The translations under genes and the position numbers were made by a program. Shown piece by piece: positions 1-43,299 of a stretch of DNA of 64,000 nt. How positions within the stretch are numbered: the stretch's first letter is position 1; every line of letters starts with the position of its first letter. A model generated the notes under the pieces. The model was not told the DNA's origin. It ran no database searches and saw nothing but the letters and a program-made list of their open reading frames with translations. The DNA lies in contig JAXDQS010000002.1 in assembly GCA_034667725.1 (NCBI GenBank), positions 1-64,000 of the forward strand. The letters are read 5' to 3'. This stretch comes from Thermoplasmata archaeon (lineage in GTDB: Archaea > Thermoplasmatota > E2 > JACPAO01 > JAHFTW01).

Positions 1-116
1 GCCTAGGGCAAGTTCTCCACGTGTTACTGAGCAGTCTGCCGAGGGCCGAACCCTCTCGACTCGCATGGCTTAAGCGAAACCCAATAGCGGTGGCCGCTGG
101 CAGGATCAACCAGAAT
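1..116 (-). rRNA. rrs: 16S rRNA, 5' end (runs off window edge)
   Basis: Reverse complement reads ATTCTGGTTGATCCTGCCAGCGGCCACCGCTATTGGG...TAAGCCATGCGAGTCG...GCTCAGTAACACGTGG, the canonical archaeal 16S 5' terminus. Confidence 0.97.
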
Positions 117-27099: not shown

Positions 27100-28977
<1,878 letters not shown>

Positions 28978-29275
28978 GGTCTTTCCTCACCTGCTGGCAA
29001 ATGGTGAGTCAGGACTTCTATAAGAGCATGATGCTGGCGGTCTGAGGTGTCCAGTTCCGCGGCTTCTGGCTGGCCTGGGCCTATGGCCCAGTAAGGCGTC
29101 AATGCATTGAACCAATCTATCGGCCCACGACGCCCTGGTCCCGGCCCCCTCCTTTTCAAGTCCAACCACCCAGTGAAACACCCCTCCACTCCTGGTGAAC
29201 TCAGCACAGCCGACAACAACGACTTCCGCGAACGCCGTCCAACGGGCTGTAACCCACCCCCGCCTGGACCTCGCC

Positions 29276-30079
29276 ATGAAGCGCTTCGTCGCCCTGCGCA
29301 TCCGCAGCCCTGATGCGTGCTACTCCCACCCGCAGTTGAGCATCCGGGCGTGCCGCTTCGACCTGGCCCCCTTCCGGGTCCGAGAGCAGCGGAAACTTGC
29401 CATCTGGAAGGCTCGGCCGGAGGCGCGGGCGGCCTGGGACTTCGACGCCGATTTCATGGAGGGCGCGGTCTTGGTGACGTACGGTCAATCCACGGACCAG
29501 TTGCACGCCGAGCTTCGACGGTACGGGTTGGGTTTGGCGGTCGACCAGGTCGTCGTGGACGCGCAGGAGTTCTTCCACCTCGACCCCAGCCTCACCAAAG
29601 CCGCCCTCAAAGCCGGATTCAAGGCGCCCCGCAGCGAAGCGGAGGCCGCCCGTGCCACAGCGAGGCTGTTCAGCAAGCACTGGAACCCGATCGTGGAGTT
29701 CAAGCTCGACTCCCACCCCGCCCACCGCTCCTCTTGGCCCGCCGATTATGGGGACGTCTTCGTGCGGGATGCCCAGAACCAGGTCCGTCTCACCAAGGGC
29801 GAGTATGCCGGGTGGACGGTCGTGGACGCGTACCTGGAAGGATACGAGTTCCAGGATTTGACCCACGACGCCCGCACCTTGGCAATGATCCTGGCTGAGG
29901 CGCCGAAGGCGCCGTGGCCGCCGCGCCCCGCCGCCCCCCTCTACCGGCGGTTGGACGCCTTCGATAAGTGGTTCACGGACGCCGAAGCCTGGCTCACCAC
30001 CGCCCAAGGCAAGCACGACCAAGTGCCCATCCTGCGAGACCAATTGTTGCGACTGCGCCGCGACCTGGAGGGCATCTAG
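29276..30079 (+). CDS. Inactive DEDDh exonuclease-like paralogue 1
   Basis: Aligns by eye with 30881-31648; Exo I DxE replaced by RxR (ALRIRSPD); retains DQVVVD and KGEYAGW. Confidence 0.7.
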   Translation: MKRFVALRIRSPDACYSHPQLSIRACRFDLAPFRVREQRKLAIWKARPEARAAWDFDADFMEGAVLVTYGQSTDQLHAELRRYGLGLAVDQVVVDAQEFFHLDPSLTKAALKAGFKAPRSEAEAARATARLFSKHWNPIVEFKLDSHPAHRSSWPADYGDVFVRDAQNQVRLTKGEYAGWTVVDAYLEGYEFQDLTHDARTLAMILAEAPKAPWPPRPAAPLYRRLDAFDKWFTDAEAWLTTAQGKHDQVPILRDQLLRLRRDLEGI

Positions 30080-30080
30080 C

Positions 30081-30881
30081 ATGCAAGCCCCACCCCCGAA
30101 GCGCTTCGTCGCAGTGCGCACCCGCAGTCCGGATGCCTGCTACACCCACCCGCGCTTGAACATCCAGGTCTGCCACTTCGACTTGGACCCCTTCCGCGTC
30201 GTTGCTGAACGCCGCCTCTCCTTGACGCCGACGGGGGCGTGGGGCATCAACGCCGACTTCCTGGAAGACTCGGTCCTCGTGACGTACGGCCAGGACCTGG
30301 CGTGGCTCAACACGCGCATGCGCGTCGGCGGCATGGACCTCCGCCCGGACCAGGTCGTCGTCGACGTCCAGAAGTTCTGGCACCTCGACCCGTCCCTCCT
30401 CATGGCGGCCAAGAAGGCCGGAATCAAGACGCCTAAGAGCGAGGTGGACGCGGCCCGCGTCATCGCGGAATTGTTCGCCAAGAAGCACGACCCACGCTTG
30501 CAGGCTCACCTTGCCCAGCACCCCGGCATGCGGGAAACCGACTACGAGGGCGCCTTCAGGCGGGACCGCCGCAACCTGATTCGCCTCCAGAAAGGCAAGT
30601 ACAAGGGCTGGAGCGTCCCGGACGCCTACCTGGACGGCTACGACTTCCAGGACCTCAACCAGGACGCCCGCAGCCTGGCCGCCGTCCTCGTCGAGGATCC
30701 GGCCTCCTATGCGGTGCCTGCCATGACGGCGCACCTGCAAGAGGTCGCCAAGGAGCTCGACGAGTGGATGGAGATGGCCACGGCTTGGATCCAGAGTCCC
30801 GCTGCCTTGCGCAAGCCGCTGCTCTACAGCGCCTTGCGGGGCCAGCTTATCCTGATCCGCCACACCCTGGGGGAATTCTGA
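30081..30881 (+). CDS. Inactive DEDDh exonuclease-like paralogue 2
   Basis: Closely similar to paralogue 1 (AVRTRSPD, DQVVVD, KGKYKGW, DAYLDGYDFQDL). Confidence 0.7.
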   Translation: MQAPPPKRFVAVRTRSPDACYTHPRLNIQVCHFDLDPFRVVAERRLSLTPTGAWGINADFLEDSVLVTYGQDLAWLNTRMRVGGMDLRPDQVVVDVQKFWHLDPSLLMAAKKAGIKTPKSEVDAARVIAELFAKKHDPRLQAHLAQHPGMRETDYEGAFRRDRRNLIRLQKGKYKGWSVPDAYLDGYDFQDLNQDARSLAAVLVEDPASYAVPAMTAHLQEVAKELDEWMEMATAWIQSPAALRKPLLYSALRGQLILIRHTLGEF

Positions 30882-31648
30882 TGGAGCTCCCCAAGGGCTA
30901 CCCGACGCGCTTCATCGCGTTGGACTGCGAGACCACCAGCATGGACCCCGCCACGGCGCGCATCGTGGAGATCTGCCTCGTCGAAGTCACCTACCCCCAC
31001 CTGGAGGAACGCAGCCGCTGGACTACGCTCATCAAGCCCGACGTCGAGTTCCCCAAGGAGGCGCAGGCGTACTGCGGCATCACCGAAGACCTGCTCCGCG
31101 AGGCGCCTTCGTTCCGGGACGTGGCGCGCCGCATCCAATGCATCCTGGAAGGTGCCGCCATCATCGCGTACAACGGCCGCCGCTTCGACGTGCCGCTCCT
31201 GCACCAGGAGCTCGTGCGCGCCGGATTCACGGGCCTGCCGGGCAACCAGGTCGTCATCGACCCCTACGAGCTCTTCCTCCAAGACTCCCCCCGCAACCTG
31301 ACCGCCGCCTTGCAGCACTACACCGGCTACACGCACCCCAAGGCGCACCGTGCTGAACCCGACGTCAACGCCATGCTCCTCGTCCTGGAGGAGCAATTGA
31401 AGAAGCGGAACCCCGCCGACGCCCTGCGCCGCGAAGTCCAACGACAACGCGTGCACCACTTCACTCAGGATCCGAACGGCACGGTGCGGTTCGCCTTCGG
31501 CAAACACCGCGGCCAACCCGCCCTCCACCACCCCGACTACCTCCGCTGGATGCTCAAGGAGCCGACCTTCGCCAACAGCCACCCCAAAGTCGTCGAACTA
31601 CTCGACGAATGGAAGGACACCGCCGATAGGCCCCCCGCAGCAGCATGA
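30881..31648 (+). CDS. DEDDh 3'-5' exonuclease (DnaQ/ExoX-like) with C-terminal FGKHRG domain
   Basis: DCETT, YNGRRFD, HRAEPD; FGKHRGQ...PDYLRW; TGATG coupling. Confidence 0.92.
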   Translation: MELPKGYPTRFIALDCETTSMDPATARIVEICLVEVTYPHLEERSRWTTLIKPDVEFPKEAQAYCGITEDLLREAPSFRDVARRIQCILEGAAIIAYNGRRFDVPLLHQELVRAGFTGLPGNQVVIDPYELFLQDSPRNLTAALQHYTGYTHPKAHRAEPDVNAMLLVLEEQLKKRNPADALRREVQRQRVHHFTQDPNGTVRFAFGKHRGQPALHHPDYLRWMLKEPTFANSHPKVVELLDEWKDTADRPPAAA

Positions 31649-31654
31649 GAAAAA

Positions 31655-32467
31655 CTAACGCGGAAGCGGGGTCGACTCCACCGCCGCCCTTAATTGCTCG
31701 TCCGTCAGGAAAACGGTGTCCCATAGAGTTCCCGCAGCAAACTGCCGTCCCACCCCACCTAAAAGACCCGCATGAAATAGACGAGCAAGTGCCCGATGGT
31801 ACCGTCGAGCTAGCGCTGTGATCTCCGTCCCCACTTGGTGGTAATAGGGATCGAGGCTTGCCCGGAAATCTTCCGGCGGTCTGATGCCCCGTTTGGAAGC
31901 CAAGTGATTCTCCAATTTGGTCATGATGTCTTCCGCTCCTTTGCCATCACTGGGAAGGCTCAGGACCCGGTTCAAATGGTAGTACCGACCCTCCCCCGCA
32001 AAAGAAGCCAACGCTTGAACGAAGAGGCGGCAATCTTCGTCCTGATGCATCCAGTCCAAGTCCTCACGAACGAGTCCTTGCCAATGGTGATTGAGGTCAG
32101 TTTGTGGGCCTGCTTTGCACTCCTCCACGAGCTTATCGTGGAGCTTAACAAGTTCGTGGTTGAACGACCGGATCTTGCCGCCACTTGGACGCCGTCCGTC
32201 CACATGCCAACGACGCAAAACTAACGCAATCTTGAGCATGCGTTCGAATCCGTAGGTGTAGAAGAGTAGCGGAGCTGTGTAGAAGTTGTTGGAGCCGGAG
32301 ATCTCTGCGGTTGCTCGATGTCCCTGATGGATTGCTCGCGAAACCGCTTCCAGTTCCAGAAGGATGCCGCCCCTCTCGGTGACGTCCGGCGTCCCCTTGG
32401 AGGGCCAACGTTCCTTCGTAGACGGCGGTGGAATTGGGGGCGACTGATGAAACGAGTCTGGGTGCAC
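31655..32467 (-). CDS. Hypothetical helical protein, possibly HEPN-like
   Basis: GFERMLK, NHELVKL, GRYY motifs; start uncertain. Confidence 0.6.
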   Translation of the reverse strand: MHPDSFHQSPPIPPPSTKERWPSKGTPDVTERGGILLELEAVSRAIHQGHRATAEISGSNNFYTAPLLFYTYGFERMLKIALVLRRWHVDGRRPSGGKIRSFNHELVKLHDKLVEECKAGPQTDLNHHWQGLVREDLDWMHQDEDCRLFVQALASFAGEGRYYHLNRVLSLPSDGKGAEDIMTKLENHLASKRGIRPPEDFRASLDPYYHQVGTEITALARRYHRALARLFHAGLLGGVGRQFAAGTLWDTVFLTDEQLRAAVESTPLPR

Positions 32468-32572
32468 AGCGGGTAGAGACCATTAGCCCTTCATGAGGAT
32501 GGAACAACGACTCGCCAGGCCGAACGCTCAACGAAGCCTGGGAATTTGGGCCGCACAGAACAGTTGCCCAGC

Positions 32573-33580
32573 CTAGGCCGCCTCAACCTGCATGCGTTTT
32601 CGCCACCATGCTCGAAGGTCACGGCTGAGAGCGAGACCGAACATCACAACCAGGAACACCGCTACGGCAATCAAGGCGCTGAGCGTCTGAAGTTCCGATT
32701 GCAGGGAAGGGGATGACTCCTGCGACCTCAGCCATGTCCATCCACTGCCAAGAGTCGAGGGCAGGTACAAAGCGCATAGAAGTGACCAAGCCAGGAAAGC
32801 CGCGATGCAGAATCCGACCCTAAGACTGCGGCGCGGAATCAGCTTGGCGAGAAGCGGGCGCCGCCTCAGGAAACCCGTGGGCAACACGATTACCACCACC
32901 GTGCCTGCGACCATCGCCCACTCTCGCACATCGTTCAACTTGATTTGGCGAGTCCGGACCTGGCCTTCCAGCCACCAAGCTGAAACAAGTGTGAAGGCGA
33001 CGAGAACTGCGAACATGAGGATGGTGTTGCGCTGCCGCTGAAACGCTTTCTTGACGTTTGCCCGCGCTTCTTTCAGCACCTCGTCATACGACTGCACCGG
33101 AGTCGTATCCTTCTTGCGAGTGTCAATGAACTTCTGCTTATGGACAATCATGGTCGCTTCAAGGGTCTCGGACATGTCGCGCTGTAGCGTTCTGGAAGAA
33201 TACATCCAGCGCGAGAAGGCGCGACCCGCAAGGAAGACCGACCCCACAAAGATCGCGAAGGCCACAAGTTGTGGGGTCGACTCGGCGTCACGGGCCATAA
33301 TCATGAAAATGAACGAGAGGAGCGCCATTCCAGCCCACCAGAGCGCGTTTGGCCCAGCATTGGAGTACGCGGCCTCATGGGCTTGAAGGCGGCGCAGGGT
33401 TTGCGCTCGATATGCATGGCTCACAGGGTCGTTCCGTGCTTCAGCTGACGCAGTCGCCTGCTCCAGCTGGAGGAGCTCGCCCGCGCGCCGATGCTCCTTC
33501 AGGCCCGCAAATTGCCACAGCGCGGCCCCCGCGGTCACAACAGCCGCAATGGTCTGCCAATGCCCGGTCGTCAACTCCAC
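32573..33580 (-). CDS. Multi-TM hypothetical membrane protein
   Basis: About 7 hydrophobic segments; GTG 33580 supported by TTTTATT ~25 nt upstream and by the start of the paralogous pseudogene. Confidence 0.75.
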   Translation of the reverse strand: MELTTGHWQTIAAVVTAGAALWQFAGLKEHRRAGELLQLEQATASAEARNDPVSHAYRAQTLRRLQAHEAAYSNAGPNALWWAGMALLSFIFMIMARDAESTPQLVAFAIFVGSVFLAGRAFSRWMYSSRTLQRDMSETLEATMIVHKQKFIDTRKKDTTPVQSYDEVLKEARANVKKAFQRQRNTILMFAVLVAFTLVSAWWLEGQVRTRQIKLNDVREWAMVAGTVVVIVLPTGFLRRRPLLAKLIPRRSLRVGFCIAAFLAWSLLCALYLPSTLGSGWTWLRSQESSPSLQSELQTLSALIAVAVFLVVMFGLALSRDLRAWWRKRMQVEAA

Positions 33581-34151
33581 GGAGGCCAGCACCCCTACAT
33601 CCAATAAAAGGGCAAACGCGGTGGAATGCACACCGCCCAGCCGGCTTAGGTCAAATGGTCCGCAATCCAACCTTAAAGTCTTGCCGAAACGGAGTAGACC
33701 GTTGGAGTAAAAAGAGGCCTAAGAACATGGAGGGGCCAGTTCGACTGACCGCAACCCTCGCCCCGAGCCTAGGAAACTTTGAGGCGGGGGTTGCGGCCGT
33801 GTATGCTCTGGCGGATTCCGCCCCCAAGCTACTTGGAGGCGGGCCGCCAGACGGTATCCCCATCGGGCGGTCCTAACTGGGACCGAGGATGTAGGATGCC
33901 CAAGAAATCCCTTCCGAAACGATTCAAGGTCAGAGAGCCTGCTCGCTCCTGTGGAACTCTTGGCCACTCACAAGCCCCCCCGAAAACATGGGGTGAGGGG
34001 GCTTCAATCCCACAATGTTTGTGGATTAGGGCTATTAACCCTTCCGATTTGGCCCGCAAGCCGCGTGGGTCGCTGAAAAGCATCTCACCGCAGCCGGAGC
34101 CTACCCTGCATGGTCCCCCAAGTTCTTGCATTCCGGGAGGAGGGGGCACAA

Positions 34152-34694
34152 GTGAATAGCGGGCCAAGGACCCTTTCGGAGCAAGAGCGCAAGGACTTGG
34201 TGCTGTTCCTGCTCAGCAAACGGTCCATCAAGCCGGTCGATGCAAAAGCAGAGGCCTCCGATGGAGGGCACAGCCTTCTCCATACGGCAATGTCCATTCT
34301 GGATGCCAAACTAGAGAAGAAAGGGCTTGATCTGGGGTACGACTTCAACCAGTATCTCTTGTACCCAAGTGACTCTAGGCTGAACCGTGATGTGTTCCAA
34401 CTTTACCACAGCGAACTAATCGAGAACGAAGACGGTGAACCGGAACGGCAGTTGCCAATTCGGCACATTGAAGTCACGCCAGCAGGTAAGAATCATATCC
34501 GATTTTTTGGCGTGGAGTCAAGTCTGGCTCGTGCCCTAGCAGGAAAGGAGATTCGGCTTAGCGAAGTTACAGCCATTTGGCAAGACTTGCTTAGCAAGCC
34601 GATGGCAGAACTCCTTAACCTAGAAATCAAGGCCCGCAATCGCGAGGCCTCCATGAAAGAATTTGAAGATGCCGTCAGCACTCTTATAGACTAG
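34152..34694 (+). CDS. YwgA/SocA(Panacea)-like winged-helix protein
   Basis: LGYDF..Y..YP.DSRL..DV..L...ELI and VTPAGK; GGAGG upstream of GTG. Confidence 0.55.
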   Translation: MNSGPRTLSEQERKDLVLFLLSKRSIKPVDAKAEASDGGHSLLHTAMSILDAKLEKKGLDLGYDFNQYLLYPSDSRLNRDVFQLYHSELIENEDGEPERQLPIRHIEVTPAGKNHIRFFGVESSLARALAGKEIRLSEVTAIWQDLLSKPMAELLNLEIKARNREASMKEFEDAVSTLID

Positions 34695-34713
34695 ACAAAT
34701 TGGGGGGGAGTAG

Positions 34714-35835
34714 ATGCTAGTCGGTCGTGGAGCAGGCATTGTCCTCGCCCTTAGCCAGTACGATCGCGATGGGACACTCCTCAACCGAGCTGCTTCCGAC
34801 CTTCGGAAAAAGGACGGCAAGAGCCGCTATGACATCATTGAATCAAGTGCGTCTGGATTATCCATGAGGTTTTCGGAGACTTACCTCTCTAAATTCTCCA
34901 CGGTGCAATGGGGTGCAAGGCTGGGCTCGGCCCAAGGCGCGGAGAGCCGTCTAAAGGCCTTGAAAGCCGTAATGCGTAGCATCACAATGAAGATTCACAT
35001 CTTAGACGGAGTTCTCGCCGTTGAATTTCACGTGGATTCTACGGTAGCCCCTCTAGTGACAATCATCGACCGAACACCCATAGTTGGCCCTGGGCTCCGC
35101 GGGGAAATGGAAACACACTTCCTCGATTATGTGATGGACGTGACAGCGCTCGTACATGAAACAAGTGACAAGAAGTTCGTGTCGTTGAACGTTTTTAGCA
35201 TCGTCTCCGCATTCTCGTTTTCTGGAACTGGCGCCGTAGCAAGTGAGAATGCTCTCTTTCAAGAGATTCGGCAGAAGTTGCGGGACCAACACCACGACAA
35301 CATCGACAAGGTCGAGCGCTTTGAAAGCGAGGTGCGTACCCGCAAGCGGCGCTATCTTATCCGCAGGAAGTCCAAGTATCGCATAGAATGGCAGTTCCCG
35401 AGCACTTTGCAAAAATGGATTACCGAAGAAATCGAGCGGCAAAGAAGTCACCACTGGCAGGCCATTTACCTTGCGGGATGCATGAGAAATTGCCGACAAC
35501 GGAAACACAGCACGCTGCGTCGGCTGGCAGATGACATGGATCACTATGCCCCCCTCTATGAGGTGAGGCGGGAAATGCTGGGATCTCTCCGAGACCAAAT
35601 CGGCTTTCAACTGGCCACCAAGGGCCTTCTCGCGGGCTTCGTCCTTTTCGCGGTTGCTTTCCTTCTTGCCATCAAAGCCGCTCCGTTTGACAACTGGTCC
35701 GCACGCTATGCAACGATTGGCTTCATTCCTTTAGTTGGATGGGTTGGTTACTGGTATGTGATGCATGGCATTACTAGGAGCTTGGAGTTGGAAATTGGGA
35801 AAACATCCATGCTTCACAGTCGGGCAAAACAGTAG
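34714..35835 (+). CDS. Hypothetical protein with long helices and 2 C-terminal TM (CorA-like topology)
   Basis: 373-aa ORF with GGAG SD-like element; two C-terminal hydrophobic segments. Confidence 0.7.
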   Translation: MLVGRGAGIVLALSQYDRDGTLLNRAASDLRKKDGKSRYDIIESSASGLSMRFSETYLSKFSTVQWGARLGSAQGAESRLKALKAVMRSITMKIHILDGVLAVEFHVDSTVAPLVTIIDRTPIVGPGLRGEMETHFLDYVMDVTALVHETSDKKFVSLNVFSIVSAFSFSGTGAVASENALFQEIRQKLRDQHHDNIDKVERFESEVRTRKRRYLIRRKSKYRIEWQFPSTLQKWITEEIERQRSHHWQAIYLAGCMRNCRQRKHSTLRRLADDMDHYAPLYEVRREMLGSLRDQIGFQLATKGLLAGFVLFAVAFLLAIKAAPFDNWSARYATIGFIPLVGWVGYWYVMHGITRSLELEIGKTSMLHSRAKQ

Positions 35836-36019
35836 TCCCTAGCCTATTCAGTGGGGAGCCGCATGGATGACTGGCGACAGCGCTGAACCACGGCGCAGGG
35901 CGAAGCAAAACGCTACAGAGATTACCGGCGCGGCACCAAGGCGCCGACTGCTACACTCCGCTGCGCTGTCGAGTGATGTGCCCCAAAGGCGCGTATGGCT
36001 CGTTCATGCCCTTGCTTGT

Positions 36020-36132
36020 TCCGGTTCAGGAGTTAGCCCGCACGGCGGTGCTCCTTCAACCTGCGAATTGCCACAGCGCGGCGACGGCCACCACAGCCGC
36101 GATGACTTGCCAATGCCCGTAGTGAGTTTCAT
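36020..36132 (-). pseudogene. Degraded paralogue of the 5' end of 32573-33580
   Basis: MKLTT/HWQVIAAVVAVAALWQFA/LKEHRRAG* versus VELTTGHWQTIAAVVTAGAALWQFAGLKEHRRAGE; two frameshifts and a stop. Confidence 0.8.
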
Positions 36133-36185
36133 GCTGAGTTACCTCCATGCTGACAATGCAATGACTTAGGCGGACAGGAACTATT

Positions 36186-37802
36186 CTACGGGGCAATGAC
36201 CGGCTTACTTGGTAGGCTCCAGTACCCGCGGTACCACTGCTGAATCACAGGATTCTGGCAAAGACATCCTTCAGCGGGCTCGCCAATCGGGATCTCAGCG
36301 CTCGTCGACTTCCAGCGCAGACTATCTCCTTGCACCCGATTAGGGACCTGCTGGTAGCCAATCGCTCGCAGGATGATTGCCGACGTGGCATGGATTCCCA
36401 CGATTACCGGCACGTGCGGAACGGGCGGAGCTGCAATCCGGTCGTTGCCAACTTGGGCGCCTTGTCCGCAGATTCCCTCGATGAGTTTCTTCAACGGTTG
36501 CCCGAGGAATTGGGATATGTACGTGTCCGAGAATCCTTTGGCGCGTTGCAAGTCGTCCAAGTCAGCTTTGGTCAATGTCTTGGATGGGTCTTCGAGGTAG
36601 GCTCGAACGCGCGCCAAGGGCCAGCCTACCTGACGTGCCTTGAACTCCATGGCAGTTCCAGGATCATCAGTCTTCGAGTGGTACTGGCAAGCCATGCATG
36701 CTTGGTCGCCAATGCGGTGAATAGAGTAGCCCCATGAGTTGAGCGCGTCTCCGCTGTCGGTCCATACATTCATGACCTGCTCGTGGAGCCCGAACTGGAT
36801 GTCACGGCGGGTTACCGCTGAGTCGACCGCCGCCACCACTAGGCGACGGGGGCGAGCGCCATCCAAGTCGGTCCAGCCGAGGTAGGTGAGCGGTGGCGCC
36901 AGGTATTCGATTTGGAGTAGTGGCAGGATGGCCCAGCCTGGTGAACCGGCACTTAGCCCCAGTGCGTGTCGCGGCTCGAAGCGGGTCGGCATCGCGGCTG
37001 GATAGACGGGGGCCGGAGCCGGGAATTGAACTTGGAGTAAGGGATGGTGCGAAGCAAGGACGTGACGTGCAACCTGCGGTTTGTATTGCCCGACTGCCTT
37101 CTGGGTAGCCAGCAAGTAGCGCTCCATGTTGCCTTGGTCGATGAACTCGTGATCGACCAGGTCGATTCGCCCAGCTAGATTTGGCAGGGTGGTAAGAGCG
37201 TGACAGATTGCTTGGCCGACGGCGCCCACGCCGACCAACGTGACGTCGATGATGGGGGTAGCCGCGTCTAAGGCGGGAGCATCGGGTGGGCTGGAGCCTC
37301 CGCGTCCAGTGATAAGGTCCCAGGTGGCTTGCCCATCCAAGAGGCGAATGCCTTCGATTGTGTCCTTGAACGCGACGTTGAACACGTGTTGAGCGGCCAG
37401 GCTTGCGGCGTAGAGAGCTGCCAGTACGTTGTTGCCTTGGCAGCCGGGTGGCTGGGTTGTTGAGATGGCTGCGGCCCAAGACTGGAAATCTGCGTGTATG
37501 TGGGGCACGGCTACTGTGGAGTCTTGCAGCACGACAGTCATGTCTGGAGTGACGCCCGGCTGGAATTGGACTTGATTCACCAGACTTCCTACGTGAGCTT
37601 GGCGAGCGGGATCTTGAACGCCTTCGACGGTCAAGTTGCGGAAGGTTCGGCCAAGGATGCCGATGGCAAGGCGGGCTTGTTCCAAGCGGATTGGGTTGTT
37701 CTCGTCGACCACCACGTGGACCTTGAAGTTCTGGCAAATGGCTTCGACGTTGGCACGGGGAGCGCGCGTCATTGCTAGCGTGCCTGCGGTTACGCGGTTC
37801 AT
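36186..37802 (-). CDS. E1-like ThiF/UBA enzyme with N-terminal inactive adenylation-like region (BilD-like)
   Basis: GVGAVG, DHEFIDQGNMERY, AVDS...R, CMAC, ICG (candidate catalytic Cys), CLC; ATGA overlap with JAB stop. Confidence 0.9.
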   Translation of the reverse strand: MNRVTAGTLAMTRAPRANVEAICQNFKVHVVVDENNPIRLEQARLAIGILGRTFRNLTVEGVQDPARQAHVGSLVNQVQFQPGVTPDMTVVLQDSTVAVPHIHADFQSWAAAISTTQPPGCQGNNVLAALYAASLAAQHVFNVAFKDTIEGIRLLDGQATWDLITGRGGSSPPDAPALDAATPIIDVTLVGVGAVGQAICHALTTLPNLAGRIDLVDHEFIDQGNMERYLLATQKAVGQYKPQVARHVLASHHPLLQVQFPAPAPVYPAAMPTRFEPRHALGLSAGSPGWAILPLLQIEYLAPPLTYLGWTDLDGARPRRLVVAAVDSAVTRRDIQFGLHEQVMNVWTDSGDALNSWGYSIHRIGDQACMACQYHSKTDDPGTAMEFKARQVGWPLARVRAYLEDPSKTLTKADLDDLQRAKGFSDTYISQFLGQPLKKLIEGICGQGAQVGNDRIAAPPVPHVPVIVGIHATSAIILRAIGYQQVPNRVQGDSLRWKSTSAEIPIGEPAEGCLCQNPVIQQWYRGYWSLPSKPVIAP

Positions 37803-38287
37803 GGGTGGACCTTGACTAGTGCGCTCAATTCTTCTGATTCGAGTGTTCGCCCCCAGCCGGAACGGTCTCGGATGTAGCCCACGCAGTGCGGCCAATTCTT
37901 GAGTCCGAACCGTCCGAAGCAAGGCACAACGATGGAGATGCTGCCTTCTTGCGTGACTGTATCGTCAGCGTCGTCGGTGTCACTGTGAAAGGCATGGCCA
38001 GGATGCGTGTGAATCTGGATTGCGATTAGTCTCCCCGTGTCGGCTAAGTCTTGGTGGATTGGAATCAGGCTCCCAGGAGAGAGACGGACGCTAAGTGCTG
38101 TGGCGTGCTGCTCGGGCACGTACACCATGTCCAAGAGCAGAGTCTTGGAGTCTATGGGTTTTCCAGCGAGCAGTACCAGGCACTCGACGCCTTGGCTTCC
38201 GGCTTGCTGCAAAACGTTTTGGGCCGCTTGGAGGGCGTCAGATCCGACTCGGAATTCCATTATTGACTTCAAGTCGACTGGTTTCAT
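37799..38287 (-). CDS. JAB/JAMM metalloprotease (BilC-like)
   Basis: N-terminal E (GVEC) and QIHTHPGHAFHSDTDD = HxH-x5-SxxD. Confidence 0.92.
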   Translation of the reverse strand: MKPVDLKSIMEFRVGSDALQAAQNVLQQAGSQGVECLVLLAGKPIDSKTLLLDMVYVPEQHATALSVRLSPGSLIPIHQDLADTGRLIAIQIHTHPGHAFHSDTDDADDTVTQEGSISIVVPCFGRFGLKNWPHCVGYIRDRSGWGRTLESEELSALVKVHP

Positions 38288-38752
38288 CTAGTCCCTCTTG
38301 AGAAGTGAGACAACGTTGTTCACGATTCCGACTGGACCAAAGTTCGGGAGATGCCTTACGGACTCCCATGACAGTGCATCACCATAATCCTCATGGAATT
38401 CCCTTGTCCCTTCGACGCAGAAATATGCGCCTTGCCCAGGTCGTTTCGCATCATCCCAAACGTGGTTCTCCCCTCCTTCCCTGAGCAGGAAAGGAGCGAC
38501 CTCTTTCGAGGCCAGTCGCTTTGTGAAATCTGGTGTGCATGGGATTGCGCGAGGCGGCCGGTGCGGCCAATCCGTGGCGTCGAAGAGGATTCCCAGCTTG
38601 GCGTTCCGCTCCGAGTTGAGGACATGGACGGCCAAGTACGGGTACGCCACGTACACAACCTGCCAGTTGTGCTGGCTTGCAGAAGCACTTTGAATGGGGT
38701 CTGCGAACGAGGGGAAGAAGACGCGCCCCAGTTCGCCTGGGAAGACGGGCAC
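38288..38752 (-). CDS. E2-like CEHH-type protein (BilB-like)
   Basis: DWPHRPP (E2 YPxxPP-like) and CVEGTREFH = CxxxxxE[YF]H signature. Confidence 0.8.
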   Translation of the reverse strand: MPVFPGELGRVFFPSFADPIQSASASQHNWQVVYVAYPYLAVHVLNSERNAKLGILFDATDWPHRPPRAIPCTPDFTKRLASKEVAPFLLREGGENHVWDDAKRPGQGAYFCVEGTREFHEDYGDALSWESVRHLPNFGPVGIVNNVVSLLKRD

Positions 38753-38754
38753 GA

Positions 38755-39015
38755 CTAGGCCTTCTTGCCTGGCTTGTTGGACAAGATGATGGTCGCCTTT
38801 TCCGGGATGCCGGAATCCTTCCAGGACTTGCTCACGTCCACCGGCTTCCCATTGAAGGTAACATCGTACAAGGACAAGTCGTCCTTGTTTCCAGTGTCAC
38901 TCAAGGCCTTCTTGACAGCTACCTGGATTTTCTGGTTCTCGGGGTAGGAATCCTTGACGGCTTGGCCGTTGACGCTGATAGTGGCTTCGAATTTCTTGTC
39001 TGGTTTCTCGGGCAC
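38755..39015 (-). CDS. Ubiquitin-like beta-grasp protein (DUF2604/BilA-like)
   Basis: ISVNGQ...ENQKI..AVKKAL.DTGN...NGK.VD...W...GI...TIILS; first gene of the E2-JAB-E1 operon. Confidence 0.8.
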   Translation of the reverse strand: MPEKPDKKFEATISVNGQAVKDSYPENQKIQVAVKKALSDTGNKDDLSLYDVTFNGKPVDVSKSWKDSGIPEKATIILSNKPGKKA

Positions 39016-39234
39016 GGTCCCATCCGCTCCGTTGCCACGTTGCCAAGCAGCAACGGGCGCAATTTGGCACCGCCAGCGGTTCTACATGAACGCTTCTCGC
39101 CCGTTCCGCTTCCCCTTGTAATAACCTGATGGAGCGCCCCCATTTCTTGCAAGGCAGTAGGCGATGTGCGCGGAAGCTGCTTGGACTGCTTGCGTGTTCA
39201 GCATGGATATATCCGGCCCATACCTTGGAGCGCT

Positions 39235-41001
39235 GTGATTCGCAGGCTTGCTTCAATCGCGCTCGTAGTCACGCTCACCGCAGCTGCCTTCCCCGTCGAC
39301 GCTGGCTTGCGTGAAGGCACCTTCGGCGCGAACGAACCCGCCCGCGAGTCCTTCGGCTTCGGACCCGACGGCGAAATCATTGGCAGCCCAGGCGACTTCG
39401 AGCTCTTCGCCGCCGCCAACGCAATCTCTGCGGGGCTCCAATGGGATCCAGCCTTCGACCCCTGCATCAGCTGCCTCTACCCACCCGCCTCCCTTCTGGC
39501 CCACTACCCGAACCCCGTCCAGCCTGCCCCGACGGCGTTTGACCAGGCGCGCATGATCCACCGCGACGTGCCCACGTGCAGCGGCATTGCGAGTGGACCC
39601 GGTGGCGGCGCCGCATGCAATCCCACCGTCGAGTCCTGCGACCCGTCAGACCCGCACAGCGTCGATGTGCGCGACTACAGCATCGACCAAATGTGGGACG
39701 GCAACCCCGACATCAACGTCAGCGACGAGAGTTGCCCCACGCCGTGCGACGAGGACTGGTCCGGCCCCCCACTCGCCTCCTCCGAAACCTGCGAATGCAT
39801 CCCACCCGATTCCTGCGCGCCTGACGAATGCGATGAGCCTGGCCTGTTCTTCGAGAACGACCCCGGCGAACTATGCACTCCGGATTGCACACCAGCCCAA
39901 GAATGCCTGCCTTTCCCGGTGCCATGCAGTCCCGTGACGTCGTGCCTCCCACCAGAATGTGGCAGCCCAGGAATCCTAGAAGCCATCCTGCTGCTCGTCG
40001 TCAATGGACCCTGCACGCCCGACTGCTCGCCAACCTCCGAATGCGTTCCGAATCCATGCGACTCTTCCGGGTGCCTTCCGCCACCGTGCGACGAGGAAGG
40101 AATCCAGTTGAGCGACACCGACGACCCGTGCACGCCCCACTGCGCTCCAGCACAAGACTGCCCCAGCAAGTGCGCCCCGCCGCTCTGTGGAGAGGCCGAC
40201 ACGCCCGTGTTCTGGCCGGACGAGAACCACGACTGCGTCCCTGAGTGCAGTCCCGTCCAAGACTGCACGCCACCTTCTTGCGAAGAGCCGGGAATCGGAT
40301 TCAGCACGCAGGACGACGAGCCTTGCACGCCCAACTGCTCTCCCATCCAGAGCTGCGTGCCTCTACCACCGCCTTGTGAGGAGGGCATCAACACCAACCC
40401 AGTCACGGACGAAGACCCGTGCATCCCACAATGCAACATCCAGGGCTGCTTGCCGGTCCCGGTTCCTCCGCAATGCGAAAACGACGGCCTTGCGGGACTC
40501 GATAGCGACGTCTGCATCCCGAACTGCACGCCAGCCGCCGCATGTGTTCCCCCAACCTGTGGTCCGCCCACTCCAGTCGCCTGCGATCCTTGCGCCAACA
40601 ACTCGTGTCCCGAACCTGTGTGCCTCGCCGCGCCTCAACTCTGCGAGGGCAGCGACCCCAGCCCTTCTTCGCCCACCTCACCGAGCTACTGCGGCATCTC
40701 CCGCTGCATGACCGTCTCCGGCACCCTCCGCCTGCCCTTCCAAGACCCCACAGCCCCAAGCAGCCCGACAGCTTGGTACGACTGCCGCGTCTGCTGGTAT
40801 GACATCCACGACGACGACAGCGGCCAAGACGACGAATGGCTCGGCCACGGCTACACCACCAATGAAGGCTACTTCGAGATCGAGGTCAACAACGACGACC
40901 TCTGCGCCACAAGGGACCCGTTTTACTCGTGCAGCGACCAAGACATCTACCTGGTCGTCTGGGCCTGCTGCAACTTCGCCAGATTCTGCCCACGGTCTTG
41001 A
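39235..41001 (+). CDS. Secreted Cys/Pro-rich repeat protein, possibly C-terminally truncated
   Basis: Signal peptide, seven P-x-x-C...CxPxCxPxxxC repeats, then a beta-rich segment (YDIHDDD...TTNEGYFEI); GATATAT upstream. Confidence 0.75.
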   Translation: MIRRLASIALVVTLTAAAFPVDAGLREGTFGANEPARESFGFGPDGEIIGSPGDFELFAAANAISAGLQWDPAFDPCISCLYPPASLLAHYPNPVQPAPTAFDQARMIHRDVPTCSGIASGPGGGAACNPTVESCDPSDPHSVDVRDYSIDQMWDGNPDINVSDESCPTPCDEDWSGPPLASSETCECIPPDSCAPDECDEPGLFFENDPGELCTPDCTPAQECLPFPVPCSPVTSCLPPECGSPGILEAILLLVVNGPCTPDCSPTSECVPNPCDSSGCLPPPCDEEGIQLSDTDDPCTPHCAPAQDCPSKCAPPLCGEADTPVFWPDENHDCVPECSPVQDCTPPSCEEPGIGFSTQDDEPCTPNCSPIQSCVPLPPPCEEGINTNPVTDEDPCIPQCNIQGCLPVPVPPQCENDGLAGLDSDVCIPNCTPAAACVPPTCGPPTPVACDPCANNSCPEPVCLAAPQLCEGSDPSPSSPTSPSYCGISRCMTVSGTLRLPFQDPTAPSSPTAWYDCRVCWYDIHDDDSGQDDEWLGHGYTTNEGYFEIEVNNDDLCATRDPFYSCSDQDIYLVVWACCNFARFCPRS

Positions 41002-41026
41002 TTGTTTGCCGAGGTCGGGAGAACCC

Positions 41027-41452
41027 TCACACGAGCTGGTACAACCGTCTCGCGAACGCCGACTCCAGCACCAGCAGGTCCGGCGGCGGCCGTCCCAGCG
41101 CCGCTTCCGACAAGGCGGCCGCGACCAGCTTGGTGCCGTCGGGCCGCCGGAACACGCGGATCGTCAGGTCCAGCTCCTTCTCGCTGCCGTCCTTGCGCTG
41201 GGCGGGGACGCGGACGGTGTGGCCCATGAGCCGCGACTCGCCGGTCTTCGAGTACCGGCCGAACCCTTCCGAATGGCGGGCCTGCAGCCGTCCTGGGATG
41301 ATGGAAAGCAGCGGCTGGCCCATCAGTTCCGGCCCCCATCCGAGCAGGCGTTGGGCCGTGGTGCTGGCGAACGTGATGCGGCCGTGGTCGTCCACGGCCA
41401 CGATCGCCCCGGAGAGGCCGCGCAGGATGTCCAGCTCGGCGTCGTCGCTCAC
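41027..41452 (-). CDS. Stand-alone PAS domain protein
   Basis: AIVAVDDHGRI...LLGW...ELMGQ...IIP...RKDGSE. Confidence 0.85.
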   Translation of the reverse strand: MSDDAELDILRGLSGAIVAVDDHGRITFASTTAQRLLGWGPELMGQPLLSIIPGRLQARHSEGFGRYSKTGESRLMGHTVRVPAQRKDGSEKELDLTIRVFRRPDGTKLVAAALSEAALGRPPPDLLVLESAFARRLYQLV

Positions 41453-41520
41453 GCGTCCTGCACGAGCCGGGCGCTACATGAAGGGTCGGAGTCTGGGCCG
41501 ATGGACGTTTTTGTCCATTC

Positions 41521-41973
41521 CTATGGGTGCAGCATGGCGACGAACCGCCACGCCGAGCCTTCGACGTTCATGCGGGCGACGGCGCCTTTCGGGAACGCGA
41601 ACTCTTCGGGCGCGTCGGCGCTCTCCAGCACGCGCTCCTCGATGCCCGGGTTGTGGCCCGCGATCAGGATCCGCTCGCCCGGGTGGTCGAGCACGACGGC
41701 GGCGTAGGCGCGGGCGTCGGCCTGGTAGAGGCGGGGGTCGCGGTGGATGTCGCGCTCGGGCAGGTGCCAGGCCCGGGCGGCGAGGCGGGCGGTCTCGAGG
41801 GCGCGGGCGGCGGGACTGGAGACGACGCGGGTCGGCCGGAGGCCTTCGGCGACCAGGCGCAGCCCGACGCGCTCGGCGTCGTGGCGGCCCTCCGCCGTCA
41901 GGGTGCGCTCGAAGTCCGGCGTGGCGCCTCCTGGCACCGCCTCGGCGTGCCGCAGCAGCAGGACCTCACGCAC
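41521..41973 (-). CDS. sixA: SixA-like histidine phosphatase
   Basis: LLRHAEA, R.LT..G, SSPA.RA..TA, GHNPG. Confidence 0.88.
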   Translation of the reverse strand: MREVLLLRHAEAVPGGATPDFERTLTAEGRHDAERVGLRLVAEGLRPTRVVSSPAARALETARLAARAWHLPERDIHRDPRLYQADARAYAAVVLDHPGERILIAGHNPGIEERVLESADAPEEFAFPKGAVARMNVEGSAWRFVAMLHP

Positions 41974-42027
41974 GCCCCTCGGCAAGGCGTCGGCATGGAC
42001 GGCGTTTGTGGCGTCGGCAAGCGGCCG

Positions 42028-42504
42028 CTACGGCGCCGCGCACACCTTGGCGAAGCGCAGCACCCGTTCGCCGAGCAGGTAGCCGGGCTGGACGACGCGC
42101 GACACGTGGCCGGGCGGCACGCCGTGGGCCGGCTCCTGCGCCAGCACCTCGTGGCGGGCGGGGTCCACCTTCTCGCCGACCGTCCCGAGGCGCACCAGGC
42201 CCTCGCGTTCGGCGAGGCGGTCGAACTCGCGGGCCAGCATCACGACGCCCTCCGACACCGGGCCCGGGTGGGCCTCGGCCTGGTGGGCGGCCATGTGCGC
42301 CAGCTCCAAAAGCGGCAGGAAGGACTCCAGGACGCGGGCCTTGTTGCGCTCGCGCTCCAGCTGCGCGTCGCGGTGGACGCGGCGTTGCAGGTTGTCGTAG
42401 TCGGCCCGGCAGCGGGCCAGGCGGTCGCGCAGGTCCGCCACCTCCGGCGCCATCTCCGGCGCCGCATCTGCCGCCTCTGCCGCCTCCTCCCCCTGCTCCT
42501 CCAT
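42028..42504 (-). CDS. grpE: Nucleotide exchange factor GrpE
   Basis: RADYDNLQRR, DPARHE, QPGY.LGERVLR.AKV. Confidence 0.92.
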   Translation of the reverse strand: MEEQGEEAAEAADAAPEMAPEVADLRDRLARCRADYDNLQRRVHRDAQLERERNKARVLESFLPLLELAHMAAHQAEAHPGPVSEGVVMLAREFDRLAEREGLVRLGTVGEKVDPARHEVLAQEPAHGVPPGHVSRVVQPGYLLGERVLRFAKVCAAP

Positions 42505-42582
42505 GGCAGCCGGCAGCGGGGCCTGCGAAAAAGCCTGATGGGAAAGCGCGGGGCCCAAATAGCGGGGCGGGGGTCGGCGCGC

Positions 42583-43299
42583 ATGCGCCTGGCCGCTGTC
42601 CTGCTCGTGGCCTGGAGCCTCCTTCCGCTCGCGTGGGCGTTGCCGGCGGCCGGCGACTGCCACCTGCCGCCCGCCGGCCACTGCGACGGCGTCGGCCAGC
42701 CGCGGATGCCGTCCTGCACCAACACCATGGCGCCGCCGGCGTCGTGCACCACCTCCACGGACAACAAGGACGACGAGGTGCGCATCGCGCTGCCCGACCT
42801 GGACGTGGAAGGCATGGCGACCCCGCGCGGGCTGCCGGCGCACCCGTCCGCCTACGAGACCGGCACCCTGGTGGACCTGACCCTCACGTTCGACTGGAGC
42901 GGCGAGGCGGCGGCCGACGTTGAGGTCTACTTCGCGGCCCGCCCCGGCCTCGACTGGGTCTCGGCGGGCGGCGCCACCGTCGGCTCGCCCCGGTTCTTCC
43001 GCTACACCCTCAACCTGACCCCGGACGAGCCCGCCACCGTGGCCTGGACGGCGCGGATCTGGGACAACGCCACCGGCCCCGCCCTGCTGGACTTGGCGGT
43101 GGCCTACCACGACGCGCGCGGCGTCGAGCAGCACGGCGAGGCGACCGTCCTGCTGGAGGTCGTCGACCGGCTGCCCGGGCCGCCGGCGGTGCCGTTCTGG
43201 CAGGACCCGGCCTTCATCCTGATGCTCGGCATGGTGATCGGGCTGTCCGTGGGCTACGTCCTGTTCGGCAAGCCGCGGCAGGGTCCGAAGCGGTCTTGA
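42583..43299 (+). CDS. Secreted Ig-like protein with C-terminal TM anchor
   Basis: Signal peptide; C-terminal hydrophobic helix and basic tail. Confidence 0.7.

Follow-up and report, generated by a model that had tools for sequence, protein, structure and literature searches.

Nucleases accompanied by a paralogue that has lost catalysis are known from eukaryotes, where CPSF100 is paired with CPSF73, INTS9 with INTS11, and NYN-1 with RDE-8; the dead paralogue is a structural or regulatory partner, the folds are of the metallo-beta-lactamase or NYN type, and the complexes have been demonstrated. RNase T and TREX, exonucleases of the DEDDh type, are homodimers in which the basic patch of one subunit presents the substrate to the active site of the other. 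Exu is reported as an inactive DnaQ-fold binding module. Both dead DnaQ-fold domains and DEDDh enzymes in antiviral defence are already described: Maelstrom, likewise inactive, has a DnaQ-H-fold domain without the DEDHD residues but with a new conserved EHHCHC set, and is thought to bind or process RNA (PMC2628886), and homologues of ISG20 protect bacteria against RNA phages (PMC13344964). Here we describe three adjoining genes (gene 1, gene 2, and gene 3, together the trio; products P0001, P0002, and P0003) of an uncultured soil archaeon (Thermoplasmata; assembly GCA_034667725.1), found in positions 1 to 64,000 of contig JAXDQS010000002.1; this whole stretch of 64,000 nucleotides is referred to as the window. 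Genes 1 and 2 appear to be old, lineage-unique pseudo-enzyme paralogues of a mobile-element DEDDh exonuclease that have lost metal-dependent catalysis; gene 3 codes for an intact enzyme of this kind. We give nearly an even chance to the view that the dead pair, without catalysis of their own, serve the active nuclease as partners in binding or assembly. At title and abstract level, the literature yielded no prokaryotic operon of dead DEDDh paralogues together with an active one.

The trio spans window positions 29276-31648 (+) as three open frames of 267, 266, and 255 codons. That these are three tightly coupled homologous genes, as the first-pass annotation of this DNA had proposed, agrees with their coordinates and with both junctions: genes 1 and 2 are separated by a 1-nucleotide spacer (TAG-C-ATG, read directly from the sequence), and genes 2 and 3 overlap by one nucleotide (TGATG), the TGA of gene 2 and the ATG of gene 3 having the A in common. 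The upstream neighbour, dnaK (27100-28977; HSP70, E 1e-226), is divergent to the trio, and the downstream neighbour is a convergent orphan gene with its end 7 nucleotides past gene 3; the trio is therefore a self-contained operon. The host is represented by an archaeal metagenome-assembled genome of 2.32 Mb in 26 contigs, 90% complete and with a GC content of ~70%; the 5' end of an archaeal small-subunit rRNA lies at window positions 1-116 (-).

By domain and catalytic residues, gene 3 is predicted to encode an ordinary DEDDh exonuclease. Its product matches Pfam RNase_T (PF00929) with 78.9 bits (E 8.4e-22; gathering cut-off 24 bits), and the catalytic set is complete (D15, E17, D103, H156, and D161), as it is in 37/37 full-length homologues of alignment A2 (38 rows, of which one N-terminally truncated row is not counted); all DEDDh motifs reported at first pass are present. 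The C-terminal part (FGKHRG / YLRWML), of which FGKHRG was first noted, is a candidate ExoX-like domain: the ExoX-like C-terminal domain PF20600 scores 11 bits in gene 3 (E 0.29; Pfam cut-off 26.5 bits), and a PF20600 match is precomputed for many of its homologues. Homologues at E<=1e-10 number 54, and the nearest of them have 50-51% identity to it. All 28 NCBIfam matches of gene 3 fall far under their cut-offs, so that no equivalog name applies. In PADLOC, the generic DEDDh model matches at 1.7e-25 via the exonuclease domain, and the candidate PDC-S48 at 8.2e-25, over model positions 5-215 of 411 only.

Two side observations concern this enzyme and its relatives. The C-terminus ends in -AAA in 10/13 of the closest members of its subfamily, gene 3 included (window 31637-31645; P0004-P0017); of the further homologues listed, P0009 has -EAA and P0010 has -GAA at this end, and more distant homologues have no such tail. 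We take the -AAA tail to resemble alanine-tail degrons. The genome holds two more intact exonuclease paralogues with DEDDh residues and an FGK[HY] C-domain (G000 C2:67605-68393 (-) and C4:24789-25517 (+)), both outside the inserted DNA described below; such relatives are near-universal in the host's family (17/18 genomes) and are core genes, more distant from gene 3 than its closest kin.

Sequence comparison identifies genes 1 and 2 as true, very diverged homologues of gene 3, beyond chance; the alignment of the first two genes with the third, given at first pass, is recovered by several methods. Between the two dead proteins, 127/265 residues (48%) are identical (E 5e-80). Against P0003, BLASTP gives E 1e-6 for P0001 and 1e-3 for P0002; a hidden Markov model built from the 13 closest active enzymes matches them at 9e-9 and 1.4e-6, respectively; hhalign of the dead pair against the exonuclease family (97.3%, E 2e-11, 163 columns) lays P0001 58-223 on P0003 86-255, a stretch that begins in the region of Exo II and takes in the C-terminal FGKHRG / YL motif. 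The dead-pair profile in turn matches the intact exonuclease of a congener (G012) at 3.6e-7. The best BLAST partners of the pair belong to the gene 3 subfamily (P0008, 8e-10); the two other DEDDh paralogues of the genome gave 0.48 or no match. Neither P0001 nor P0002 matches Pfam RNase_T at E<=1 (family cut-off 24 bits), neither reaches any other Pfam family or any NCBIfam family, and genes 1 and 2 match 0 families of PADLOC-DB 2.0 at E<=1.

The five-residue DEDDh catalytic set, present in gene 3, is lacking in genes 1 and 2. MAFFT sets KRFVALRIRS (gene 1) and KRFVAVRTRS (gene 2) on MRFIALDxETTG, with R8/R13 in the place of D15 and R10/R15 in the place of E17; the exchange of the Exo I Asp and Glu for two arginines in both genes, one of the initial claims, has structural alignments from residue 1 as its other basis. 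At the Exo II Asp, gene 1 has Ser72 but gene 2 retains the residue (Asp72). Both alignments agree with the reported loss of the Exo III His, hhalign with Pro118 at its place and MAFFT with Glu/Asp123; for the Exo III Asp they differ, hhalign giving Glu/Asp123 and MAFFT Thr/Ile128. A deletion first put at ~30 residues measures ~28, all from the N-terminal half. The C-terminus of the pair has ~55 added residues in two long helices (220-242 and 250-266 in models of the gene 1 product), which confirms the helical extension noted earlier and has no equivalent in the active family (alignment A4). Net charge over residues 1-57 is +7 in gene 1 and +4 in gene 2, against -4 in the equivalent residues 1-85 of gene 3. 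As a separate observation, the two dead paralogues share C15, H18, C26, H101, and H147 (gene 1 numbering; window ~29318-29716), none of which gene 3 has where it aligns with them.

The gene 1 product is predicted to keep the RNase H-like DnaQ fold. Its AlphaFold2 (AF2) model has a mean predicted local distance difference test score (pLDDT) of 77.9 and a predicted template modelling score (pTM) of 0.55; it matches DEDD exonucleases (PolC, DnaQ, ExoI, ExoX, TREX, and RNase T) in VIA with Z 9.0-12.1 and a root-mean-square deviation of 3.1-4.3 for 120-149 residues, over residues 1-149, and in Foldseek with E 3e-4 to 1e-2. The ESM Atlas single-sequence model of the same protein gives template modelling (TM) scores of 0.50/0.54 to RNase_T + ExoX-like_C clusters over 162 residues. 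The AlphaFold and Foldseek comparison with DnaQ and ExoX proposed at first pass thus found the expected fold (Z 9-12; DnaQ 11.2, ExoX 10.2-10.5), and the absence of an RNase H-like fold, named there as a ground for refutation, was not seen. The C-terminal half modelled alone (pLDDT 80.5) has three short strands, two helices, and the helical hairpin. Complex prediction for P0001 and P0002 with P0003 as partner returned 0.00 in both runs, which weighs neither for nor against binding. A hairpin resembling that of the C-terminus in ~600-residue proteins of relatives (E 4e-3 to 0.2) was rejected as mere helical similarity; by sequence it is the helical linker of an ABC-F-type ATPase.

Codon-level comparison indicates that genes 1 and 2 are under purifying selection and are not decaying copies. 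By the method of Nei and Gojobori (NG86), the proportions of synonymous and nonsynonymous differences between the two are pS 0.505 and pN 0.351 (ratio 0.56), and the same codon is used at 55/109 degenerate positions with identical residues, where 54.2 are expected from codon usage alone. Synonymous sites between gene 1 and gene 2 are saturated, and the true pN/pS therefore lies well under 0.56. The lowest pN (0.18) is found in the first 45 codons, which carry the R-x-R; NG86 pN/pS reaches 0.56-0.9 in several local windows. The stop-to-stop frames of the dead pair have GC contents of 0.63-0.67, 0.47-0.51, and 0.85-0.86 at the three codon positions, a coding-type pattern, and the chance that 267 random codons of this composition are free of stops is 2.4e-3 per gene. 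The suggestion that intact frames with shared substitutions point to selection is thus upheld, by the saturated synonymous sites and a pN of 0.35.

A maximum-likelihood tree of 28 rows gives the dead pair a stem of 3.5 + 1.4 changes/site (~4.9) and tips of 0.81 and 0.30 changes/site, which are within the range of the active enzymes (median 0.5). The long stem with ordinary tips indicates a burst of change followed by constraint; we read the burst as having accompanied the loss of catalysis. Because midpoint rooting puts the root of this tree on the stem of the pair and leaves the basal fork open, the tree fixes neither the position of the pair in the family nor the donor paralogue.

Further copies of genes 1 and 2 were sought at several depths. 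A word-indexed search of 5.8 billion proteins returned 2355 candidates, among which only the products of genes 1 and 2 themselves qualified, and a profile run exhaustively against 1.84 billion representatives gave 2 matches, both self. No dead homologue was present in 61 related genomes (60 beyond the host's own), where the only match was the intact exonuclease of G012. With alignment A1, 105 pattern matches in metagenomes yielded 0 confirmed; with alignment A3, which is narrower than A2 and found 2 loci in genome contigs, 99 metagenome and 34 viral pattern matches yielded 0 confirmed. Two grounds for refutation had been named together, a dN/dS near 1 and a lack of R-x-R-conserving homologues: the former is contradicted by the purifying selection, and the latter describes what was found, as no further R-x-R homologue turned up. 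Two DNA sequencing runs contain the stretch, X1, probably its source, and X2, a second soil metagenome from another study, in which 23% of the words occur as identical 151-nucleotide pieces at a depth of ~2-5 and without variants; with identical fragments in a metagenome from another study, the sequence is reproducible. No RNA run is listed as containing the stretch.

The DNA that carries the trio is a recent insertion. Similarity to 12/12 genomes of the same genus stops at ~28978-29035 (positions 579-635 of the queried 28400-29275) and resumes at ~42031-42044 in three congeners (G009, G002, and G004); the contig of G001 ends 2.2 kb in and offers no right flank. A gap of 490 bp separates the flanks in G009, the closest congener, against 13.4 kb here. 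GC content falls from ~0.70 to 0.53-0.66 on the island. At third codon positions (GC3) it is 0.87-0.90 in the trio, 0.93-0.97 in the host, and 0.59-0.75 in the rest of the island; as the trio lies between host and island, the island may be a mosaic. The same insertion carries a Bil-like ubiquitin-type operon at 36186-39081 (-), with an E1 matching BilD (2.5e-15), a JAB protease matching BilC (2.6e-8), an E2 matching BilB (5.7e-6), and a ubiquitin-like gene (38755-39081) that matches DUF2604 and TUG-UBL1. The two closest genomic relatives of gene 3 are likewise in mobile contexts: one (L011) immediately follows a tyrosine integrase and precedes a serine recombinase, and the other (L010) has an Eco57I-type methylase, a XamI-type endonuclease, and DDE transposases as neighbours. 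The setting of the trio agrees with a role in defence or in a mobile element. In G022 and G016, the exonuclease adjoins Thioredox_DsbH at host-like GC and is a core paralogue, not island cargo.

The adjacency of the trio to dnaK results from insertion at a variable site. An exonuclease-like J-domain module, considered on account of that adjacency, was rejected, as DnaJ gave no match at E<=1 and visual inspection showed no HPD motif. Among congeners, the dnaK-upstream site (28978-42044; L027, L028, and L030) varies in length: 0.49 kb (G009), 2.7 kb (G002), and 4.7 kb (G004), with 13.4 kb in the present genome. Its genes in G002 and G004 are unrelated and mostly unannotatable. Seven open reading frames (ORFs) of the island, of 100-611 residues (within 31655-36169 and 39166-41707), have no Pfam match at E<=0.01; one of them has a weak PADLOC match (PDC-M01B, 0.0026). 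A 95-nucleotide tRNA-Leu(CAG) called by ARAGORN at 27139-27233 (+), opposite in strand to dnaK and overlapping its 3' end, is probably false; Rfam at gathering threshold reports no tRNA there.

Table 1 Features of the trio and of the insertion that carries it, in window positions. Strand is given where the feature has one.
Feature	Position	Strand	Description and basis
Intergenic region, dnaK start to gene 1	28978..29275	.	Left edge of insertion (~28978-29035) and presumed trio promoter
Gene 1 (P0001, 267 aa)	29276..30079	+	Putative catalytically dead DEDDh-fold paralogue; R8, R10, S72, without Exo III His
Gene 1 codons R8-I9-R10	29297..29305	+	At the place of Exo I D-x-E; sequence and MAFFT
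Gene 1 added C-terminal helical hairpin, residues ~212-267	29909..30076	+	Alignment A4 and models
Gene 2 (P0002, 266 aa)	30081..30881	+	Putative second dead paralogue; R13, R15, D72 kept, without Exo III His
Gene 2 codons R13-T14-R15	30117..30125	+	At the place of Exo I D-x-E; MAFFT
Gene 2 added C-terminal helical hairpin, residues ~209-266	30705..30878	+	Alignments, homology to gene 1
Gene 3 (P0003, 255 aa)	30881..31648	+	Intact DEDDh 3'-5' exonuclease by sequence; putative ExoX-like C-terminal part (FGKHRG / YLRWML); -AAA tail
Insertion of ~13 kb, dnaK to gene 41527-43299	29036..42030	.	Trio at left edge; Bil-like operon 36186-39081 (-)
Island ORF	31655..32467	-	No Pfam match (E<=0.01)
Island ORF	32573..33670	-	No Pfam match (E<=0.01); hydrophobic by eye
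Island ORF	34110..34694		No Pfam match (E<=0.01)
Island ORF	34714..35835		No Pfam match (E<=0.01)
Island ORF	35867..36169		No Pfam match (E<=0.01)
Island ORF	39166..41001		No Pfam match (E<=0.01)
Island ORF	40799..41707		No Pfam match (E<=0.01)

If the dead proteins are partners of the active nuclease, their helical hairpins would join the two, and both would act as subunits without catalysis alongside the co-translated exonuclease. The former active site, remodelled and lined with arginines, would take up the 3' end of a nucleic acid or some ligand that bears phosphate, and the pair would hold, select, or gate the substrate for the single live active site. As an inserted island carries the module, the target would more likely be foreign or mobile-element nucleic acid than the chromosome under repair. 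Several points weigh against this proposal. That the trio proteins bind each other or nucleic acid is only inferred. No homologue was found outside one strain, so that R-x-R is seen to be conserved in no more than two paralogues. No dead partners occur at 32/32 related exonuclease loci (L010, L011, and 30 loci of the phylum drawn from 401 genomes, 38 of which have a family match at E<=1e-30), and the active enzyme therefore does not need them. The equivalence of R-x-R with D-x-E lies outside the significant stretch of hhalign and has its basis in MAFFT and in the structural alignments from residue 1. The input alignment of AF2 held active exonucleases, which biases the model toward the DnaQ fold; the ESM Atlas model is free of this bias but of low confidence (pLDDT 0.64). 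Among 48,161 chains, the best match of the C-terminal-half model has Z 6.8, and its residues 67-118 match generic helical hairpins only; these include dimerisation modules such as the DHp domains of histidine kinases. With one strain only and a function that is inferred, the weight of the finding is limited.

Other explanations were considered against the same evidence. The dead paralogues might restrain a potentially self-damaging exonuclease in the manner of antitoxins, forming heteromers with it or occupying its substrate until a trigger such as infection sets it free, as an abortive-infection or defence module. The Bil-like operon on the same island suits this; the dead genes are upstream and translationally coupled, and would be made before or together with the nuclease; and the -AAA tail of 10/13 closest subfamily members would, with its presumed degron likeness, suggest a short-lived enzyme. 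Stand-alone DEDDh exonucleases can moreover defend against phages (PMC13344964). The relatives of gene 3 are, however, partnerless at all 32 loci, so that the enzyme is tolerated alone; PADLOC models match neither gene 1 nor gene 2 and cover only the generic exonuclease domain of gene 3; and with GC3 so much higher in the trio than in the rest of the island, linkage to the Bil-like operon may be accidental. We consider restraint unlikely. A bolder reading makes the trio an undescribed archaeal nucleic-acid-surveillance module, in which the two dead subunits, with a pair of arginines at the former two-metal site, would recognise a particular 3' or phosphorylated end or a small oligonucleotide and license the exonuclease, or aim it, at invading DNA or RNA; we regard this as quite improbable. 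The sensor and defence proposal with which the first-pass annotation ended, with phosphate-binding arginines, sensing of DNA ends or oligonucleotides, regulation of gene 3, and a defence or repair module, is possible but unsupported. Of that overall interpretation, the descent from an exonuclease, the catalytic loss, the fold, and the selection stand, and a defence or mobile setting fits.

Nor need the dead pair act on gene 3 at all: they might be stand-alone nucleic-acid-binding proteins, with end-binding, protecting, or regulatory functions for a mobile element, and be adjacent to it by tandem duplication only. Inactive DnaQ-fold binding modules are known (Maelstrom, with its 'active site switch'; PMC2628886), the stem of ~4.9 changes/site sets the pair far from gene 3, and the pair gained an extra hairpin of its own. 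The tight coupling of the three genes has nevertheless outlasted a duplication old enough to saturate synonymous sites, which argues for a stoichiometric, joint function, and independent action is in our view as doubtful as restraint. That genes 1 and 2 have no function and are what is left of tandem duplicates in decay, still open by chance, would agree with their occurrence in one strain only, with the ease with which DNA of 66-70% GC yields long open frames, and with the higher NG86 ratios in several local windows. It is at odds with the retention of 48% of residues despite saturated synonymous sites, the coding pattern of GC by codon position, the low chance of openness for each gene, the preserved junctions and starts, and tip branches no longer than those of active enzymes; we consider it largely refuted already and give it a very small probability. 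Smaller still is that of a new active site formed by an 'active site switch' from the five Cys and His common to both genes, for which the change of DnaQ-H to the EHHCHC set in Maelstrom is a precedent (PMC2628886): these residues are identical in both paralogues, but identity in two sequences that are 48% identical overall proves little, and no family or structural match hints at another nuclease chemistry.

The partnership of dead and active subunits, to which we return as the preferred reading, would give a compact prokaryotic case of a nuclease complex that gained regulatory subunits: genes duplicated in tandem would have lost catalysis, changed in a burst, and then come under constraint again. 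The outcome would also be a natural example of a DnaQ fold with arginines in place of its catalytic metals. A surveillance trio, if real, would be a sensor and effector made wholly from one fold by duplication. The trio is small (2.4 kb, three soluble-looking proteins) and so can be tested directly by expression.

Among known systems, the ExoX-type DEDDh exonucleases (PF00929 + PF20600; Escherichia coli ExoX, PDB 4FZX, 4FZY) include gene 3 as an apparently ordinary member. Genes 1 and 2 resemble them in predicted fold (ExoX Z 10.2-10.5, DnaQ 11.2, PolC-type 12.1) and in the C-terminal K-G-x-[YH]-x-G ... YL region, and differ in having neither the Exo I D/E nor the Exo III His nor ~28 residues of beta2-beta3/alpha-A, and in their extra hairpin. 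The DEDDh defence exonucleases (ISG20-like, PDC-S48, and Cas-associated) are like gene 3 via the generic domain only, and none has dead paralogue partners as the trio does; no system of PADLOC-DB 2.0 has all its components matched by the trio. Maelstrom differs from genes 1 and 2 in being eukaryotic, in having no active paralogue alongside, in its EHHCHC set instead of R-x-R, and in showing no detectable sequence relation. A split of binding and catalysis between DEDDh protomers would have its precedent in RNase T and TREX, which match the gene 1 model with Z 9.0-9.8; these are homodimers of active subunits, and a heteromer with dead subunits is hypothetical in the trio. The partner model itself would follow the pattern of CPSF100-CPSF73, INTS9-INTS11, and NYN-1 with RDE-8, from which the trio departs in its DEDDh fold, its archaeal host, its two dead copies in place of one, and a complex that is as yet hypothetical.

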